From positions 17,360,001 to 17,424,000 of the forward strand of contig CM069156.1 in the NCBI GenBank assembly GCA_035221665.1: a DNA stretch of 64,000 bases, read 5' to 3'. Each line of letters starts with the position of its first letter. Within the stretch, counting starts at the first letter, position 1. The notes under the pieces are model-generated. The model saw only the letters and a program-made list of their open reading frames with translations. It was not told the DNA's origin and made no database searches. Origin of the DNA: Okamejei kenojei (Eukaryota). The position numbers were made by a program, and so were the translations under genes. Below, piece after piece: positions 9,120 to 61,551 of this stretch.

Positions 9120-9538
9120 ACAACTTCCCTCTCTGCATCACGTTAAGCTTCGGTGGAGGCCCTGGTCCCGTCTCTCTCTCTCGCTCACACACCCATCTCC
9201 CCTGCTCTCCCTCTGCGGCTATGGCCGTCCCGTCTACCCATCCCCCAGGTGAATGGCTGCGACGGTAAGTCTCCTCCACCGCTGCCGCGGTAACTCACCC
9301 TCACGACCCTGAGGGTGAGTTTGGGGTAGGGGAGGAGGAGAGGGGAAAGAAGAGGGAGAGTGAAGAGGAGGGGGAGGGAGTGATGGGAGATGAGGTGAAA
9401 TGAGCCGCGCCTGCGCAGTTGGGGGCTATGCATGAGTGGTGGAATATTGCGTTGGGTGAACGGTAGCGTCGGGAGAACAGGTGAGTGGTGGGATGTTGCG
9501 TTGGGGAGGCATACCCAGCGGGTTTGCACTTAGTTTAG
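9120..9538 (+). mobile_element. Non-autonomous Helitron fragment (same family as 52899-54266)
   Basis: 9151-9300 aligns to 53228-53362 and 9410-9538 aligns to 54140-54266; degenerate hairpin then TTAG|T. Confidence 0.75.
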
Positions 9539-10106
9539 TCTTCCAAATAAATGCCATGAAATTCCTGTGCATTTGGCACAGACTATTGCGCCAATAGGGA
9601 TAAATACACATCAGTGGGAGGATGCATGTGAAACATAAACACTGGCAAAAATCAGATGGCCAGAATCACTCATTTTAATTCATGTGAATTTGGAGTAATC
9701 TGAGATGAGATTAGGCTAAAAGCACTCCAATTAGTTTGCTCCTAGACTGATAAGGCACGGACCGGGAGGAAGTATATGGAAGCAGCACTCCTGAATATCA
9801 CATACTAAACTGCAACGTGGTGTGCGTGTCAGCTTAGAACAGGCTCAATTGCAACTCCTCCCATGGTCAAAGAGTCAGCCCAGACTCTGACAATACAATG
9901 TCAGGAGGCTTTTGGTGTTGGAATATACACCACAAAAGTCACATAGAAATTAATGTCTCCTGAATTAAAAAAAAAAAAAATCCATGTTCAGACAGGAAGC
10001 CAAAAACAAAATTTAACCTGTACTTCAACTTCCTTCAATAAGAAGTGTTACCCTGGAGAGGGAATAAAGAGAAAATGTCAGGCTGTGCAAATCATAAGCA
10101 TGCCTA

Positions 10107-11075
10107 ATATGCAAGTTCGGTATTCCGAAAAACGCAAGGAATCATAGGATTTGTCAAAGGTCATTCACCACAAAGAAAAAGCGAACGAAGCGCTGGCCGT
10201 ATAAATTCTTATCTTTATTCATAATTTATGTGTAAAAATATATTTAATCTGAGAACGGGGTGTAACAGCAAGAGGGAGTGAGACAGGGAAGAGACTGGAC
10301 CAGCGGAGAGACATTCTCGGCAGCCGCTCGCACTCAGACCAGCACTTCATCCGCAGCCAGGATCGAACCCGGGTCCACAACACCGCAAGTGCTGCCGAAC
10401 CGCCACTGGATATGTGTGTGTGCGTGCGTGTGTGTGTGTCCCCACCCGAGTGTCCCATCCCTGCCCGGGGGGCAGCCAGAGACATCCAGGGAGACCCCGG
10501 ACTGACGGGACACCAGCGGCCCCAGGCCCACAACCAGCGCAGAGAAGAAGCTCCAACTCCAGCCCAACCCCGCTCCAACTCCTGAGGAACCTGCCCCCAA
10601 CAGGACGGGACCCACCAGCCACACCCCCCGCCCCACCCAGCGGCCGCCAGACAACACCCTCCCCCCCGGAAGTCGAGCACCAGCCATCAACGGGATACAC
10701 GCAAAGCACTGCAGCAACTCAGCTGGACAGGCAGCATCCCCGGAGAAAAGGAATGGGTGACGTTTCGGGTAGAGACCCTTCCCCAGAGAAGTTGCCTGAC
10801 CCACCGAACCACCGCAGCACCCTATTTGGATCCCCACCGATGACCGGCGCTCGACGCCCACCGGCACCAAGGGGGCCAACCGACAGCCACTGGACAAGGA
10901 GAGAGGCGCAGCAGACGGTCCCGGCCCGTCGGGGAATGGCCCGCTCGGGAGCCGGAGCAGAGCCGAGCTGGAGCCAGAGCCCCCCTCCCCGCGCCGGCTG
11001 CAAGTCTGGGCCGCCGTCACCCCGCTAGCCGGATAGGAACGGGACACCCAGGAGGGGACGGGTTGACAGTGACAG
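10107..11075. mobile_element. GC-rich non-autonomous interspersed repeat (possibly Helitron/Helentron-like), copy 1
   Basis: Inverted homology to 60945-61551 over ~600 bp; terminal hairpin TTCGG-TATT-CCGAA; internal tRNA-like B-box; short Penelope-type insert at ~10715-10810. Confidence 0.7.
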
Positions 11076-11779
11076 TTAAAACACCTGACAGTTAAAAAAC
11101 CTCACAGAAGGTTGAGCAAATGTCACCAGCCACAACCACATTATCTTTTTACCTTGGGTTGACCACACAAATTGATCAAAGCCACTCCGAACCATCTGTT
11201 AACAATTTTGTTTGAGCAAGTTTAAAGAATCAAATTTATTGTGGATGTGGTACAACAGAATTGCACATAATTAACAATTATTTAGGAATACCATACAAGA
11301 TCACAAGGATGCCTGGTTTGGGGAAATTCAGTAACACAAGTCCAGCATATTTATTTTATGGAATTGGAGTTAAAATGCCTTACAGGAGTTCTACTCTGCA
11401 TCGTAAGATCCTGCAGTAGAAGACGTGGTAGTGCATGCTTTAAGCTCTGGGTGGAGAAAACTGAAAACCATTCCAGATATCACTACACAGATTTCTCTCC
11501 TTCAGTGGACACAACACGACTCTGATCCAGAGGGTGATTTGCACCGTTGCATGGTGGATACATCTGTGCCACTGATTTTTTTGTTCCTTCAGCTGAAACC
11601 TGACCAGATATTGTCAGATATCAGACCAGATATCGTCTGAAGAAGGGTTTCGATCCGAAACGTTGCCTATTTCTTTCGCTCCATAGATGCTGCCTCACCC
11701 GCTGAGTTTCTCCAGCATTTTTGTCTACCTTCGATTTTTAGCATCTGCAGTTCCTTCTTAAACAGATATTGTCAGCGAT

Positions 11780-41629: not shown

Positions 41630-42980
41630 CAAGAGTGTTTTATTGTCATATGTCCCGGATGGGACAATGGAATTCTTACTTGCAGCACAATAGAATATGT
41701 GAATATGTAAACATAGTACATAACGGGGGAGGAGAAAATTTTTTTTTTAAATAAATAACAAATATAGAGCAATAATAATAGTTTTTTGCCGATCAGAGCT
41801 CAGAGCTTATTCGTTGTTGTGTTTAATGGCCTGATGGCTGTAGGGAAGAAGCTGTTCCTGAACGTTACAGTTTTCAGGCTCCTGTACCTTCTTTCCGGTG
41901 GCAATGGTGATATGGTGTGAGTCCTTGATGATTTTGGCGGCCTTTTTGAGGCAGCCACTACGATAGATCCCTTCGATAGTGGTGAGGTCAGTGGTGGACT
42001 GGGCAGTGGTCACAACTTTTTGTAGTCTTTTCCACTCCTGGACGTTCAAGTTGCCGAACCAGGCCACGATGCAACCAGTCAGAATGCTCTCTACCGTGCA
42101 TCTGTAGAAGTTTAGGAGAATCCTCTTCGACATGCCGAACCTCCGTAATCTTCTCAGGACGTAGAGTCATTGATGAGCCTTCTTTATAATTGCATCAGTG
42201 TGCTGGGTCCAGGAAAGATCTTCGGAAATATGCACGCCCAGGAATTTGAAGTTATTGACCCTCTCTCCCATCGTCCCATTGATATGAACAGGATTGTGGG
42301 TCCTCATCCTTCCCCTACTAAAGTCCACAATCAGTTCATTGGTCTTACTGATGTTGAGAGCCAGGTTGTTGTGCTGGCACCATTTGGTCAGTCGGTCGAT
42401 CTCACTTCTATACTCTGACTCGTCCCCATCTGTGATTCGTCCAACCACAGTGGTGTCGTCGGCGAACCTGATGATGGAGTTTGCACTATGTCCGGCTACG
42501 CAGTCATGGGTATAGAGTGAGTAAAGCAGGGGGCTGAGCACACAGTCTTGAGGTGCTGCCGTACTAATTGTCATTGAGGATGAAGTGGTCCCTCCAATTT
42601 GAACAGACTATGGTCTGTGGATGAGGAAGTCGAGGATCCAATTGCAGAGGGATGCGCAGAGGCCCAGTTCAGTGAGCATGGTAACTAGCTTGGAAGTTAT
42701 AATGGTATTAAACGCCGAGCTGTAGTCTATAAACAACAGCCTGATGTAAGTGTTTTTATTGTCCAAGTGATCCAATGCGGAGTGGAGAGCCAGCAAAATT
42801 GCATTCTCCGTTGACCCGTTGTGGCGGTATGCGAACTGTAGTTGGTCGAGGTTCTAGTCGAGGTAGGAGCTGATGTGCACCATAACCAACCTCTTAAAGT
42901 ACTTCATCACCACAGACTTTAGTGCTTGGTCGATAGTCATTGAGGCACGTCACCTTACTTTTCTCGGACACCGGTATTGT
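41630..42980 (-). mobile_element. Rex1/Babar-type LINE: RT domain and 3' end
   Basis: [23 protein letters not shown]; APQDCVLSPLLYSLYTHDC..IIRFADDTTVVGRI..LALNISKTNELIVDF; FYRCTVESILTGCI; tail ACATATGACAATAAAACACTC. Confidence 0.9.
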
Positions 42981-52662: not shown

Positions 52663-52898
52663 TGTTAAAGTTCGTTTTACTTTCCACAGACAACCAGACA
52701 CAGATCAAGTAAAGCAAGACTTCTTTATTCGCTAGCGCGAGTGGGCAGCAGCTTTAGGGATGATAGATTACATTCCCACAGCTCCTCGTGGCCCCACTCA
52801 CCAAAACAAACGACAGACATCGTAATTATACTATTATCTTATCAGTACATTCCAGTAGCCATAACCATATATGGTAAAACAAAAAGCTCTACAGCCTA
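52663..52898 (-). repeat. 3' LTR remnant (R/U5 side); U3 part lost at the Helitron junction
   Basis: By eye about 15 substitutions plus one 9-nt indel versus the 5' LTR over ~220 nt; ends ...TTTAACA next to the GGAT TSD. Confidence 0.9.
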
Positions 52899-53554
52899 CA
52901 CGATAGCGCTACGAATTTTCGCCACCTTACTCACCAATCCTGTGCTGCAAGTGCAACAAGTTTTGTTCCGATCGATGGTATATTTTAACATTTATTAAGA
53001 TTTAAAACTCTTAAAAACCGCACATTCGCAGAATGGTCTCTTCTCCTGTCAGTCTGTGCCACGCAGATTGGTCTCCTCTCCTGTCAATCAACGCCACAGC
53101 CAGTACAGCAATGCCCCTTCCTGCACTGCGGCCACTCCCGCCTCACTCACAAACTCCTCTCTCTCCTCCTCACAGTAACTTATCCACCGTCTCCCCCACC
53201 ACCGGCGGCGGCCGGGAGGGAGGGTTCAGTGGAGGCCCTGGTCCGGTCTCTCTCTCACCCTTCTCCCCGCCCGCCCTCTGCGGCAATGGCAGTCCCATCT
53301 ACCCATCCCCCTGGTGAATGGCTGCGACCATCTGTCTCCTCCGCCACCGCGGTAACTCATCCACCAGATCTACTCCACCAGCTCATCGAAACTCGTGGTG
53401 CCCACCGTGACGAACACCGACTCCATTCCCCCCCACGGCAGCAACAAGCAGGCAGGCAGGGACGGGCCAAGCGGCAGCAGCAGGCGGTCGGGGACGTGCC
53501 GAGTGGGCAGAGTTAAGGAGGGAGGGAGAGACAGGTTGCTGGGTGGCTGAGCAG

Positions 53555-53590
<36 letters not shown>

Positions 53591-54266
53591 AACTGGTCCA
53601 ATCGTCAAGTCAACGGGATCTAAACCACAGCTAACAATGAATGACCTTTGGAGGAAGGAACTGCAGATACTGCTTTTTATGGAGGGAGGGAGTGACTGAG
53701 GGTAGGGGAAATGAGAGGGAGGGAGAGGTGAGGGGAGATTGGGGGAGGGGAGGAGGAGAGGGGAAAGATCCTGCGGAGGTGAGGAGGGAGAGTGAGGGGT
53801 TTGAGGGAGAGGAAGGGGTAGGGAGGGAGAGAGGAGAGAAAGTGGGGGGAGGTGACGAGGGAGAGTGATGGAGGAGGGAGAATGGAGGGAAAGGAGGGGG
53901 GTGGAGGAGGTAGGGAGTGGGGAATAGAGGGAGAGGAGGGCAATGGGGGGAAGTCAGGAGGGATAGTGGGGGGGGATAGGGGGCTGAGTAGGGGAAAGGA
54001 GAGGGAGGGTGTGGTGAGGGAGGGGTTGGGGAGAGGGAGGAGAGGGCTTAAGAGGGGTTAAGAAGAGGGAGGGTGAAGAAGAAGGGGGAGGGAGTGCTGG
54101 GGATGGAGTGCTGGGGGGATAAGGGGAAATTATCCACGTCTGCGCAGTTGGGGGCTATGCGTGAATGGTGGAATATTGTGTTGGGGGAACGGGTTGCGTG
54201 GGGGAACAGGTGAGTGGTGGAATATTGCATTGTGGAGCAGACCCAACGGGTCTGCAATTAGTCTAG
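52899..54266 (+). mobile_element. Non-autonomous Helitron (5' end deleted) nested in the ERV
   Basis: 3' terminus GCAGACCC-AAC-GGGTCTGC hairpin, short spacer, then CTAG|T (54263-54266); homologous to copies at ~9120-9538 and 46511 onward; contains (CA)n and a purine tract. Confidence 0.8.
53370..53426 (-). pseudogene. ALG13: Captured N-terminal fragment of ALG13 (UDP-GlcNAc transferase subunit) inside the Helitron
   Basis: MESVFVTVGTTSFDELVE* versus the ALG13 N-terminus MKCVFVTVGTTSFDDLI; GC-rich 5'UTR-like sequence upstream (to ~53520). Confidence 0.85.
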
Positions 54267-54373
54267 TTTAATAATAAAAATCAGAGCAATGATTAGCAGA
54301 AGGGTAGAGCCATAATGTATCACAGTACCCCAAAGTCCATCAAACAAATTGTATGGCCACCAGTTCTCACTCT
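54267..54373 (-). pseudogene. env: env TM remnant: Trp-rich membrane-proximal region plus transmembrane helix
   Basis: [35 protein letters not shown], in frame with the THBS2 segment and truncated by the Helitron. Confidence 0.7.
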
Positions 54374-55207
54374 CTTCCTCGACCATCACCCTGATGAAGC
54401 ATGTTTTGGGTCGCTGGATCAGGTGCCACCTGTGGGCGGTATAATCTTTCCAGCCAATATTCTTGGGATCGTGCCATAAAGTTTGCACCTGTCCGAGAGT
54501 GTTGCCAGTGTGCCGGAGAGCATTGTGCAGGTGCTTCCCCCCCCCACCCACTCATGGTGGAGTTAACCACCTTGAGTGAGACGCCAACGTATCCCTGGGC
54601 TTTGAATGGCTTCTCTTTCCAGTAGGTTTGGGTGACCTGTTTCCACATCACCACTTAGAAGCGGCTGCTGGACTGGAAGCCAAAGACAAAGCCGGCGTAG
54701 ATTGCGGTCTGTGTTGACGTAGAAGATGCCACTGAAGTCGATGGCGTTAAACTCATCTAAGCCGAAGCAAGGAGGGTCAGAGTTGGCGGTGTGCATTAAC
54801 TCCCTGCCCTGGCTGCGCACTACCCAGTTAGGATCAATCTGCGTCGTCCCCTTTGGAACTTCCTCAGGTCGGTCTCGCTGATGGCGCTGTTCTCGGGGCG
54901 CACGTCATAGATGTCTTGGATGTTGTCGTTGTCAAAGTCGTCCTTGCAGGTGTTTCTTCTGCCGTCACCATCAACATTGATCTGGTCAGGGTTGGGGACA
55001 AGGCGGCAATTGTCCTTCTCATCAGGAACGCCATCATTGCCATCCTCATCAATGTCCTGATTGTCATCACACTGATCACCCACCAGGTCTGAGTCATTGT
55101 CTTCCTGGTCAGGGTTATGCATAAGTGGACAGTTATCACACATGTCTCCAACCCTATCTGGTCAGTGTTATAAATGTAAGGACAGTTGTCAGCCTCATTC
55201 AGGATGT
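54374..55207 (-). pseudogene. THBS2: Processed (intronless) thrombospondin-2 fragment: type-3 Ca-binding repeats plus most of the C-terminal L-lectin domain
   Basis: [17 protein letters not shown] / [72 protein letters not shown] / [37 protein letters not shown] / [14 protein letters not shown] / [21 protein letters not shown] / [43 protein letters not shown] and GWKDYTA are THBS2- rather than THBS1-type residues. Several frameshifting deletions. Confidence 0.93.
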
Positions 55208-55284
55208 CTTGGTCCAGGAGTTGTTCTCCAAGTCCAGCCCATCTGGGCCAACCCCAGGATAAAAAGGAGGGTCAATAGCCCCAT
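55208..55284 (-). pseudogene. env: Putative env start / signal peptide
   Basis: MGLLTLLFILGLAQMGWTWRTTPGP: hydrophobic signal-like peptide overlapping the pol end in another frame, the usual env start position. Confidence 0.65.
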
Positions 55285-56280
55285 TGTCCTTTCTTGGTTC
55301 TCTGATCCATTTACAGTCCATCAGATATATCCAACAGGGGTGATCCTCAGTCTTCACGGCGGTTGGTGCAGAGATGCCAACCCTAAATTTAGTTCACAGT
55401 AACATTCAACCCATTTGTCCGTAACAAATGGGGGTAAATGCATTTCTCTCAGTAACATACTACTCACTTGGGGTTGTTACCGGCGGCTATGCGCCTGCGC
55501 ACTGGTGCAGATCAGCGGGCTGCCGGCGGGCGGGTGCGGCACGCGCACTTGGCAAGGTTGCCGGCGGGACTGCGCCTGCGCACTGGGTGGGAGTGGGGGG
55601 GAGGCCCGGTGATGGGGCTGCCGCGAGCGGCCGGCTGGCGGCAAGAAACGTCGCCGTGTCGCTGATCGCGCGGGCCGGCACCGCCCGGGCTCTGGGCCGG
55701 GCGTGGCTGCGAGCTGCCGGGCTGGCAAACCGGGGGCACATGGCGCCGGCGTTCACCACGGGAGGAACACCAGCACGGCGGTGTTCCGTAACAACATGTT
55801 TGGCTGCCGGAACACCGTAATATGGTTATTTCGCCGGGACAAAATACGGCGAATCCGGGACACTTGGCACCTCTGTTGGTGGCATAGTAACAGAAAGATG
55901 CAGTTCCCTCCAACACAGTCCCAATTTCGTCCGATCCCAGTACCTTATCAGTACGTAGTCTCCCGATTGTATGGATTCTATGTTATGGGCAACTGGTAGT
56001 GGTTTCGGCGTTTTCAATATCTGTGAATGTAAGACTGGCATGGTTCAAGTTAATTGCTGTGCATACGTACTTAATTCATCGCTTCACAGCTTGTCCTGTT
56101 ATCAGTTCAAAAGGTGTTAACCCTGTCTCTCTAGCTGGGGTAGTTCTGAACCGTCAGAATGGCTGGGAATACCTTAGCCCATTCCTGTCCAGTCTCGGTC
56201 AAGGCTTTACTTAAACTCTTTAGTATCCTGTTCATTCCCTCCACTAATCCAGAACTCTGCGGGTGGTGAGGGATGGAAGA
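55285..56280 (-). pseudogene. pol: Retroviral integrase core/C-terminal remnant, split by a MITE
   Basis: HHPQSSGLVEGMNRILK, TTPARETGLTPFELITG, IQSGDYVLIRYWDRTKLG; removing the MITE restores ...LCWRELHLSVTMPPTAVKTEDHPCWIYLMDCK, resembling the class-I integrase C-terminus. Confidence 0.85.
55369..55875. mobile_element. Non-autonomous DNA transposon (hAT-like MITE) inserted in integrase
   Basis: TIRs CAGAGATGCCAA / TTGGCACCTCTG; subterminal CCGGGAC motifs; TTGGTG duplicated on both flanks; excision restores the integrase frame. GC-rich interior. Confidence 0.8.
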
Positions 56281-57109
56281 TTGCTCTTTACCTACTTTTT
56301 AAAGACAGACCCTTTAAGAATAGATCATATTAAGACAATTTAAAAGTATTCCCAATTGTTCCAATCTATCTCTCCAAATTCACAATTTCATATTGACAAT
56401 CTTTTTCCTGAGATATAGGTATTTCCAATCTCATCTAACACTTTAACCAGGATTCCGCATGGTCAGTGTGGAATCCAGGTCTTGAACTCAATTCAAAAGG
56501 TAAGAAATAGGAAGAAAATAAACTTAAAGCACCAATAAAACAAAACAAACCATATTAACCAGCTGTTAAAAGTTGAGAAGACGGAGAATAAACAGTTAAT
56601 TTCCACATAGATAGCGAACGTATTTGCAAAGAACAAAGGAAAAGAAAACAACTGTGTGCGGTTCATCCCCACACAACTGCAACTTCTTAGAGACACTACC
56701 TCTTAAAACACGAGACTCTACAAAGATTTATCTCGTAAAAGAGCAACCTCATTCAATGGCATCCTATTTCATCTGATTAATTCAACATTCACCCAGAACC
56801 TGTTCCACAAACAAGTAACAATCTTTAAACTTACTCACTCCGTACCCTTTTATCCCTGTGACATTCACTCACAAATTTCCACACCTCATGCAATATGCTG
56901 AATCTCAGATATTCACACACTTTATTAAAATAATAACATTCAAGGAAATCATGCAAACTTAACACTTTGACTTACCCAAATACACTCATACTTTGTTCAT
57001 AAATACAGCACATACTGAAGAATGGTCTCGACCCAAAACATCCCTTGTATTCCACTCGACTCTCCCCCCACTGCTGCTGCTGCTCCCCCCTCTTATAAAA
57101 GCTTCTAAG

Positions 57110-58049
57110 TGTAAGCTTTCCCTTCCCTCCTTACCAGCATGCGTAAGGGGGTGTGAAGAATGTAAAAGAATGGGCAGGAAAGCATCAGGTACCCAAACTT
57201 GTCCGAGAGGGGTAAGCCAGAGGCCCGTCAAAGAATCAACGGCGCAGCCCACTCATTTCCAAAAATCGCGATGCGAGGCAGAGGCGTCCCCCTGTATTAA
57301 GTTTACATCACCCGTGTCTGGAAGTGCCGTTCTGTCTACAAGAATCTTTGGTTCTGTGGGGATCAATGTGCAGAATTCGCAAGCTGCCAAGCGAGCATTC
57401 CTTTGAGGGTTCAAGAAGGAACTGCAGATGCTAGAAAATCGACTGAAGATGGGTTTTGGCCTGAAACGTTGCCTATTTCCTTCGCTCCATAGATGCTGCC
57501 GCACCCGCAGAGTTTCTCCAGAAATTTTGTCTACATTCCCTTGAGAGACGTTTGTCGCGGCTACTCATGGGCATTGCACTTAATAATGGCCAGGAGGACT
57601 GGGAGGGCTTAGTCTGGTGCTGTAGCCAGAGCTGTTTTTAAGTTGCGAAAGTCTTCTTCTTGTTGGAATGAGAGAGTGAATTGCTACGATGCCTTGGCAA
57701 AAGCACAGGCGACAGTAGTTTAGTGTATCCACTGCCAGCAGAAATTAACCAAGCCCAGAAAAGCCCTCATCTGCTTAGGGGTGGTCGGGCTGGTGTGGAT
57801 CACAAAGGGAACCACCCGGGTCTTATGTAGCACTGAGCAATAAACCAAAGATTTTACTTGCGTCTGCCCCTGAACTACCTTTCGTTTGGGTAGAATGTAA
57901 CCCCAGCAGTGGAAGGCTTTTAGTAGCTCATCGGTGTCCTCAGCATTCTTCTAATATCTGTACTTGCAAACAGAAGGTCATCAGCACACTGTATCACCGC
58001 TGAGCCGTGGGACAGCCTCAGGGTCTGAACTTGTTTCAAGACTGTTTTA
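57110..58049 (-). pseudogene. pol: Retroviral pol remnant: RT, RNase H end, integrase HHCC start (interrupted by a short retroelement at ~57409-57534)
   Basis: SAVIQCADDLLFAS (YxDD motif), PTTPKQMRAFLGLVNFCWQWI (RT thumb), ILLHSSHPLTHAGKEG (integrase Zn-finger His pair); frameshifts and large deletions. Confidence 0.85.
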
Positions 58050-58688
58050 AACTGTGCACTGTTGGTTTCGGTTAAAGTTCTCGTCTCCTCCATATGTGCG
58101 ATACACTGTTGTAATTCACTCCCAGAAATCATGCGCTGATTCCTTGGGTAAGGCTATGCATTCAATTACTTTGTCCATATCAATAGGTCGTTTCAGGCAC
58201 TGAGTTAGCGCAGTGAGCATAGCCTCGATCCTTGCGGGGTTGTCAGGGTATAATGCCTTGAGAGCCACCCAATCAGCATCATGATTTTTCCCTTTTCAGT
58301 CTTCTTTGATTTATATCCTGGCTCTGGTGTTCTACATTGTTTAACTCTCTCACTCTGGATTCAATTACTGCTCCTCCATCCTCTTCTGCCTCAGCACTTT
58401 CCCTTTTTTATCTCATCGTCCTTTTCCGTTTCCGAGTCGCTATCAGTATCATTTTCTTCTGGGGGTGCCCTTCCCGGTAGGGGTGCCGGTGATCCTCCCT
58501 ACTGGATCTTAGTGGGGGAGCTACTGCTGCTAGGGACTGGTGGCTATTGGGGAGGTTGTCTACACTATTCCCAAATTAGTTCCTCATTCTCCTTGAATTT
58601 GTTCCTTATCCCCCTCTTTTGTAAACAGGATCGCCATCCCAGGTCCCCGGGGATATTTTGCTAAGGTTTCCGTTTTCGCATTACCAAT
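58050..58688 (-). pseudogene. gag: Retroviral gag remnant (internally deleted)
   Basis: Degenerate start (ATT)GGTAAT = (M)GNAKTET, myristoylation-like; Pro/acidic stretch; major-homology-region-like IALPKESAHDFWE*ITTVYRTYGG at ~58085-58160. Confidence 0.75.
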
Positions 58689-59387
58689 TGTTTATATTCT
58701 CTTTTTTTGATAATCTTTTTGCCTGATCAGATTTCTCCGTTTTCTCGGATCCAAATAACACATATGCTGTACCGGAGCTCCACCATTTAATACAGACCGC
58801 ACACGGACTGTTCTAGCCAATCGAAAATATTCCACAGATCTCTGACCTGCTCAAGATTTACGACAGACCACACATGGTTTGCTCTAACCAATTAACCAGG
58901 GCTTGTCCCATTCTTAGCCCTCTAATTTATGATAAACCACACATGGTCTGCTCTAGCCAATTAATAACAGGCCGTACGTAGTCTGCAATCCCTATCGACA
59001 TGGGCCATTCCCACAGACTGCACTTTCCACAGACTGCACTTAATAATATCCTGACCAATCGAAAATATCCTGACCAAACGAAAATCTCTTAATCAAACAA
59101 AAATATCCAAACAAAAATATCCAAACAAAACTATCCAAACTATCCAAACGAAATATCCAAACGAAAATGACCAAACGAACCTAACCAATCGAAAATCTCT
59201 TACCTTACGTTGCCCGTGTTAAAGGATCCCGGCAGGGAACTATATCAACCTCAGACAAAGGACTACAGTGTTCCCGGGAACTTGTTCGGGAGTTCAGATT
59301 CAAAGGATCCGATAGTGCACTTTTATTCGCTCAAGGTCCCGGTGAGACTGTAGCCTCTTACTCTGTCGTCAGAGATTCCCAAGCGAG

Positions 59388-59405
59388 ATCCTGACAACTA
59401 CGCCA
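59388..59405 (-). promoter_or_regulatory. Primer-binding site complementary to tRNA-Ser 3' end
   Basis: Minus TGGCGTAGTTGTCAGGAT matches 16/18 to the complement of vertebrate tRNA-Ser 3' end ATCCTGCCGACTACGCCA, immediately inside the 5' LTR. Confidence 0.85.
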
Positions 59406-59854
59406 AAGTTGATTTTACCTTCCACAGACAACCAGACACAAATCAAGACTTCTTTATTCACTAGCGGGAGTGGGCGGCAGCTTGAGGGATGATAGATTAC
59501 ATTCCCACATCTCTTCGTGGCCCCACTCACCGAAACAAAGGACAGACATCATAATTATACTATTATCTTATCAGTACATTCCAGTGGCCATGACCATATA
59601 TGGTAAAACTAAAAGCTCTGCAGCCTATTAGGATATGAGAAAAGCTATGCCATATTAGGCTTATCCAGTAAAGAATTATTACTGATCTCTACAGTTTCGC
59701 GCCATTCTCTGCAGTTTGGCACAGCCTGGTTCTTTTAACCTTGGGCAAAAGCATGCTTTCTACAAGCAAGTTTTCATTTTATATATTACTTGAAAACAAC
59801 AGCAGAGTCTCCATTTTGTAACCTACAGCAGTTTTGATTGCTTTCATTCTTTCA
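59406..59854 (-). repeat. 5' LTR of the ERV (~450 bp)
   Basis: Begins TGAAAGA on minus; AATAAA near 59453-59458; 59406-59627 aligns to 52667-52898; directly followed by the PBS. Confidence 0.9.
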
Positions 59855-60520: not shown

Positions 60521-60944
60521 CATAAGCAAGGGATTACAGAGGACCTGTTCCCATTTTCACATTTAAGTCGAATGCAAAGATCCTACTGTTCTAAATGGAA
60601 CTGGGTTTTCCGGATTCCAGGCCAATATTGCCACTTTAGGAAAATAACTAGACTCACTCCTTAATTAAGAGATTTGTGGGATATGAAAGACAAAAACTAA
60701 CAGAACTCAAGTGTCCTCTGAAAGAATAAACGTGTTCAGTCTTCCAACTGCTCATGCCTTGGTCATAGGTCACTCGCCATGAACATTGTTGGTAGCTGAG
60801 GAGCTGGACCTTCGTTTCATCCGTATTTTCCAGCTTTGATTCTTCAAGGTAAGAAAATACTGCTTTCAAACTATGAATTAGTTGTATTTATTGTTCCTTG
60901 TACAAAGCCACGATGATTTTGTTGGTTTTATTGCTTTATGCTTC

Positions 60945-61551
60945 GGTGAGTGAGCACTTTGTGTGTATCCCTGTTGTTGGCTGGTGCTCAGCTCTCGCCG
61001 GCTGCTAGGTGGGGTGGGAGGTGCGGCTGGCAGTCCCCGGCCGGGAGCGGGTTCCTCGGGAGTTGGAGCAGGTTTGGGTTGGAGTTGGTACTTCTTCTCC
61101 GCACTGGCTGTGGACCTGGGGCTGCCGCTGCTCCGGGCCGGTGTCCCGTCGGTCCGGGGTTGCCCCGGACGTCTCCGGCCGCCCCTCGGGCGGGAATGGG
61201 ACACTCGAGGGGTGACGGGGTGGTCCAGTGGCGGTTCAGCAGCGCTTGTAGCGCCGGGGACCCGGGTTCAATCCTGGTTGCGGATGAGGCGTGGGTCTGT
61301 GGGCACGCGCTCCCGTCTCCCACTCGCATCCGCCCCCTCTCTCTCGCTGTTACACCCCGCTCTCTTGCTACCTGACACCACCCCCCCATTCATCAGATTA
61401 AATATATTTTTACACATAAATTATGAGTAAAGATAAGAATTTATACACAGTTTCATCAGCTAGCGCTTTGATCACTTTTTCTTTATGGTGAATGACCTTT
61501 GACAAGTCCGATTATTCCCTGTGTTTTTCGGAATACCGAACTCGCTTATTG
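60945..61551. mobile_element. Same repeat family, copy 2, in opposite orientation
   Basis: Reverse complement matches 10113-10715 (e.g. GTTCGGTATTCCGAAAAAC..GTCAAAGGTCATTCACC..TATAAATTCTTATCTTTA). Confidence 0.7.

Follow-up and report, generated by a model that had tools for sequence, protein, structure and literature searches.

An intronless THBS2 mRNA fragment in place of the env body of a decayed ray endogenous retrovirus, joined at a probable exon start

For ALV c-erbB and M-MuLV c-myb, PMC3186009 describes read-through and splicing that join a viral leader to an internal host exon. The resulting hybrids have Gag or Env sequence fused in frame to a 5′-truncated gene, and they are selected and somatic. 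The ray locus described here resembles these cases in having a viral leader on an internal host exon of a 5′-truncated gene, but it differs from them in being a germ-line copy of a matrix-protein gene with an out-of-frame 5′ join and a putative splice donor. Acutely transforming env-onc viruses have an open fusion ORF, whereas the ray provirus lacks one.

A second group of related cases comes from endogenous retroviruses (ERVs) of other non-mammalian vertebrates. According to PMC4299795, CrocERV31-nectin3 and CrocERV29-KITLG each hold a processed host mRNA, as the ray provirus does, and nectin3 likewise replaces env. The crocodilian captures are described there as multi-copy, with near full-length ORFs under purifying selection; in contrast, we saw a single ray copy that is partial and decayed. 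That paper also summarises co-packaging with recombination, and the word “splice” does not appear in its main text. Background on template switching by reverse transcriptase (RT) is given in PMC3187697. LTR-mediated retrocopies, including HERV-K/FAM8A1, also have a partial mRNA in place of internal ORFs between two LTRs, but their joins fall at microsimilarities anywhere in the mRNA (PMC5131818), whereas the ray 5′ join coincides with a probable exon start. Both the splicing and the template-switch routes are thus already known, and the ray locus is a fresh fossil example; taken alone, it adds one decayed copy to what is known of this process. A search of the main texts of open-access articles yielded no account of an ERV that had captured a thrombospondin, which is weak evidence of absence.

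A THBS2 mRNA fragment between two LTRs

The window, the 64-kb stretch of ray DNA that we analysed, contains a degenerate ERV provirus on the minus strand at ~59630-52663. The 5′ LTR (59406..59630, minus strand) has degenerate ends and an uncertain outer start; paired with 52667-52898, it is 88.8% identical over 232 columns. The 3′ LTR (52663..52900, minus strand) has the form TGT...ACA and is followed by ATCC at 52662-52659. With a 5′ copy at 59631..59634 (minus strand), ATCC forms a 4-bp target-site duplication that is a candidate only, because a similar TATC also lies before the 3′ LTR. Directly after the 5′ LTR is a primer-binding-site-like stretch (59388..59405, minus strand), which we take to be tRNA-Ser-like; no purine tract was seen just upstream of the 3′ LTR. 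Broken gag remnants (58038..58787, minus strand) were matched by tblastn with P0124 (E 6e-11) and P0122. Broken pol remnants, comprising RT, the RNase H region, and integrase (IN) with later insertions (55922..58066, minus strand), were located by tblastn with P0122, P0125, P0126, and P0127, which carry the Pfam domain MLVIN_C (PF18697). The gag, RT, and IN remnants occur in the expected order between two direct LTRs. The MLV-type integrase C-terminal domain PF18697 in P0122, the closest pol relative (E 1.6e-12), points to a class I (gamma/epsilon-like) provirus; the provirus's own two split integrase pieces had no Pfam match.

Between the pol remnants and the 3′ LTR lies a degenerate, intronless fragment of THBS2 (54381..55208, minus strand; residues 810 to ~1130, ~830 nt) that spans the type 3 repeats and part of the C-terminal domain. 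Its best PDB match is THBS2, and it matches Pfam TSP_3 and TSP_C. A frame-aware alignment to Mobula THBS2 gave 230 identical codons among 280 aligned, a count that takes in six non-homologous codons upstream of the join. The damage consists of a 33-codon in-frame deletion, smaller deletions, four frame-changing events, and one stop. In a tree with 27 named reference proteins, picked from the 120 matches listed (of 242), the insert grouped with chondrichthyan THBS2 (support from 85/78 to 94/64, on a long insert branch). This placement by itself suggests the genome of a batoid or another cartilaginous fish. THBS1 was rejected as the source, since the insert falls outside the 100/100 THBS1 clade. 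The 64-kb window contains no other THBS sequence; hence, the provirus did not integrate inside THBS2, at least within 64 kb.

One of the 111 named proteins listed, the predicted protein P0035, has a 91-residue gap (residues 1004-1094) that fits two THBS2 exon boundaries, which we assume to lie at residues 1004 and 1094. The assumed boundaries earn some trust because they match the ends of this gap. The insert runs continuously, with no intron, across both positions and therefore derives from spliced mRNA. We concluded that the locus is a host mRNA capture by an ERV, in which intronless host coding sequence replaces viral sequence between the LTRs. The initial annotation had proposed a provirus with spliced THBS2 mRNA in place of the env body, and the LTR pair, the gag and pol remnants, and the intronless insert bear this out.

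A separate observation concerns the 33-codon loss, which is sited at the step from 55039 to 55038, between two type 3 repeats. It is of the kind expected of repeat-guided slippage.

The 5′ and 3′ joins

The junction sequence and the start of THBS2 homology given in the initial annotation both hold: GGACCAAGACATCCTGAATGAG is present at 55215-55194 on the minus strand, its single occurrence in the window, and homology runs from G55208. Comparing codon by codon with THBS2 of Mobula, Chiloscyllium, and Callorhinchus, we found that codon 55208-55206 fits residue 810 with no mismatch in two of the three references and one mismatch in Mobula. In contrast, the codons just 5′ of the join miss invariant residues, D809 by 2 nt and D807 by 3 nt. 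All 112 named THBS1/2 proteins among the matches listed (120 of 242, with 8 unnamed, unclassified, or bacterial matches excluded) share D805, D807, G808, and D809. Since codons fit from 55208 and fail at invariant residues upstream, the homology starts at G55208. This G ends the viral-side CAAG and at the same time begins host codon 810; it could come from either parent and is therefore assignable to neither alone. The 5′ capture junction is accordingly sharp, at 55207..55208 (minus strand), with only this G visible as common to both sides. Residue 810 varies among G, D, and E, all with G as the first base, a weak point in favour of the splicing account; it is one of 9 among 80 variable columns with that property.

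Human COMP bears on whether this position is an exon start. PMC3272220 places c.1133 (D378) in exon 10 and c.1152-1153 (D385) in exon 11, and c.1133 also appears in PMC4051597. COMP R379 aligns to the first codon of the insert (E 6.4); together with these exon positions, this confines an exon boundary to a bracket of 19 nt in which the join itself lies. Text from PMC1464143, PMC4051597, and PMC13115595 did not narrow the bracket. COMP is a subgroup B paralogue from another species, and the same intron in ray THBS2 is inferred. The exact phase-1 site, which we take to be G805 in THBS1 and c.1135 in COMP, would be at most 1 nt from the onset of homology. By chance, a coincidence with the exact boundary would be expected in ~1% of cases and with the bracket in 8-11%, assuming 15-21 introns and bearing in mind that the coincidence was noticed after the fact. 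No isoform gap at residue 810 was found among the 111 named proteins listed. We concluded that the 5′ join is probably at or next to an exon start. The earlier claim that it falls on a thrombospondin exon boundary agrees with its location inside the COMP bracket, and the exact phase-1 site is kept as an assumption.

The viral sequence upstream of the join was initially taken for env. It proved instead to be an integrase/pol C-terminal tail (55232..55387, minus strand), resumed after an insertion of ~500 nt, that overlaps only a 26-codon env-like leader in another frame. The pol tail is 46% identical to P0122 over 52 aa, ungapped (E 5.5e-05 among 1.84 billion proteins); P0122 pol ends short of the position equivalent to the join, and no viral homologue has been verified for the final 24 nt ahead of the join. 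The leader (55208..55284, minus strand) consists of an ATG and a hydrophobic, signal-peptide-like stretch (KD11 2.8), which we infer from position and composition to be env. A phmmer search with the 84-aa upstream flank gave three matches, only P0122 (pol) being relevant and two being judged spurious repeats. The flank profile search gave 41 proteins, mostly of gag/pol type, and none of the 10 C-termini inspected matched the flank up to the join. Atlas searches for the parental env yielded nothing usable. A retained intron upstream of the join was rejected, because the flank is 48% pyrimidine and its pol homology reaches to 24 nt from the join.

With that pyrimidine content the flank does not resemble an acceptor, and it ends in MAG. 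This triplet has a background of 4.5% in the viral part; 18% of the Gs in the provirus follow MA. Because the G of CAAG also opens host codon 810, the donor-like signal shrinks to MA before G. The CAAG end, previously read as donor-like, is thus a MAG end of which the G is ambiguous and only MA is informative, against that 18% background. The join lies 77 nt past the env-like ATG at 55284, in phase 2, and the THBS2 codon is split in phase 1; therefore, the env-like frame meets a stop four codons past the join, and as the sequence stands there is no open in-frame viral-host fusion ORF. With the 5′ join and the env-like ATG in different frames, nothing selected for the join, which counts against the splicing account. 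An open env frame here would also restrict the putative donor: GTAA, GTAG, and GTGA would each create an env stop and could not have served. These are the commonest donors; weaker ones remain.

A double RT template switch would need no donor, and this stop constraint would vanish. Under this explanation, RT would have jumped from the viral genome onto a co-packaged mature THBS2 mRNA and back at microhomologies, reaching the exon start by chance. This is the usual route of LTR-flanked retrocopies; in Drosophila, 25 of 29 junctions show microsimilarity, with internal ORFs replaced (PMC5131818). The shared G55208 could be the edge of a microhomology, and the internal deletions of the insert are of the same slippage type. 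However, the explanation requires a ~1% coincidence if the boundary is exact, and MA before G adds another 18%. We regard it as unlikely, although it is the main rival account.

The 3′ junction zone (54372..54381, minus strand) lies inside an exon. THBS2 homology can be followed clearly as far as 54381 and ambiguously as far as 54372, 10-19 nt beyond an exon boundary that we take to lie in R1127, and the earlier placement of this junction a few codons inside an exon is upheld. A 3′ join made by splicing or by intron retention was rejected, as homology runs past that assumed boundary. Downstream is a Trp-rich, hydrophobic, env-TM-like tail (54270..54374, minus strand; KD19 2.31), which we read, by position and composition only, as an env membrane anchor. 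The last THBS2 block is in frame with it (a 97-aa open stretch at 54551-54261), as would happen by chance in 1 case in 3. The tail search found no homologue, with 0 of 6 candidates matching.

These two flanks raise the prospect that the original chimera was an in-frame protein of env signal peptide, THBS2 signature domain, and env transmembrane segment, selected and membrane-anchored, that replaced Env. The insert does directly follow the signal-like leader and is in frame with the TM-like tail. Against this, the 5′ join is now out of frame, with an ~11% chance of a later frame change in the 24 unverified nt; the C-terminal domain ends ~45 residues short; and a second chimeric copy was not found. 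We consider such a protein very doubtful. If it existed, the locus would be the fossil of an env-onc-env transducing virus whose cargo was a matrix/angiogenesis gene.

The structure of the insert also bears on whether LINE machinery made it. A 5′-truncated THBS2 retrocopy could have landed in env of the integrated provirus, and a subsequent deletion could have taken away the env body together with the 3′ end and poly(A) of the retrocopy; the provirus does show several later insertions and many deletions, and LINE RT remnants are present in the window (42170-42607). This would require two events as well as the ~1% boundary coincidence, and the insert has no poly(A), 3′ UTR, or target duplication. 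We judge this origin very improbable.

Probable read-through, splicing, and template switching

We propose that read-through and splicing made the 5′ join and that RT template switching made the 3′ join, which we consider likely. Read-through, splicing, and one RT switch would together yield one join at the start of an exon and the other within an exon. The apparent exon start at the 5′ join fits textbook splicing capture without proving it. The initial annotation had suggested this same combination; its placement of the two joins stands, in that the 5′ join coincides with or adjoins a probable exon start and the 3′ join falls mid-exon, but the viral flank is mostly pol/IN and not env.

The ancestral provirus would have lain upstream of a THBS2 exon and in its sense orientation; the simplest site is the intron that precedes the exon starting in codon 810. 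Transcription from its 5′ LTR would have read through into THBS2. A weak donor in the env leader, 77 nt from the ATG, may then have been spliced to the acceptor of that exon, with normal removal of the THBS2 introns farther downstream. The resulting hybrid RNA would have been packaged alongside a normal viral genome. While synthesising the minus strand, RT may have moved from the env TM region of the viral template to the hybrid RNA, landing 10-19 nt inside a THBS2 exon. The recombinant would have integrated away from THBS2 and decayed as a non-coding passenger.

The same acceptor could have been used without a provirus in cis, either by trans-splicing to THBS2 pre-mRNA or by an RT switch onto partly spliced pre-mRNA at the intron-terminal AG. 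These routes would give an identical junction sequence, and the viral AG would match the acceptor AG. Both processes are rare, however, and the RT switch needs one intron to be retained while later introns are spliced out. We consider them improbable. The weight given to each explanation is a rough weighing, not a computed value, that sets a low splicing prior and the donor constraint against the ~1% coincidence, discounted because the host exon map is presumed and the coincidence was noticed after the fact.

If the donor behind the proposed splicing is confirmed, the locus would be a germ-line fossil of the read-through and splicing route in a cartilaginous-fish retrovirus, as in bird and mouse tumour viruses, here apparently without a selected fusion protein. 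It would also raise a genome-wide question, namely, what share of the 5′ joins of ERV-captured genes lie at exon starts as opposed to following the microhomology route.

Later insertions and other repeats

A later insertion with a Helitron-like 3′ end (53225..54266, plus strand; 5′ end not fixed) interrupts the env-TM-like tail. Both of its ends resemble 9149-9539 at 76-80%. The elements at ~53225-54266 and 9149-9539 are related, with a hairpin and then CTAG, followed by T, at one end; the Helitron label is our presumption. Helitron capture of the THBS2 piece was rejected, as the piece lies outside this insertion and has no introns. Within the insertion, an 18-codon stretch (53426-53373, minus strand) is possibly a captured first-exon piece and, we presume, resembles the N-terminus of ALG13; the peptide had no Pfam or PDB match and is probably too short.

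Other insertions interrupt pol. A GC-rich insertion of ~500 nt (~55390-55900) splits the integrase C-terminal domain. It contains three TGTTACT-like motifs as well as two TGCGCAGGCGCA-type repeats, and the 64-kb window has no other copy of it. An AT-rich stretch at ~56490-57075, with no pol homology by tblastn, is possibly a further insertion, and it also has no second copy in the window. A SINE-like repeat with many copies in the window is inserted at 57409-57538.

Outside the provirus, 2 of 63 long ORFs had a Pfam match, both in a LINE reverse-transcriptase remnant at 41810-42607 on the minus strand (RVT_1, E 9e-10). Rfam and ARAGORN gave no matches. Two GC-rich regions, 10219-11101 and 60881-61430, have common stretches in their translated frames and probably represent another repeat family.
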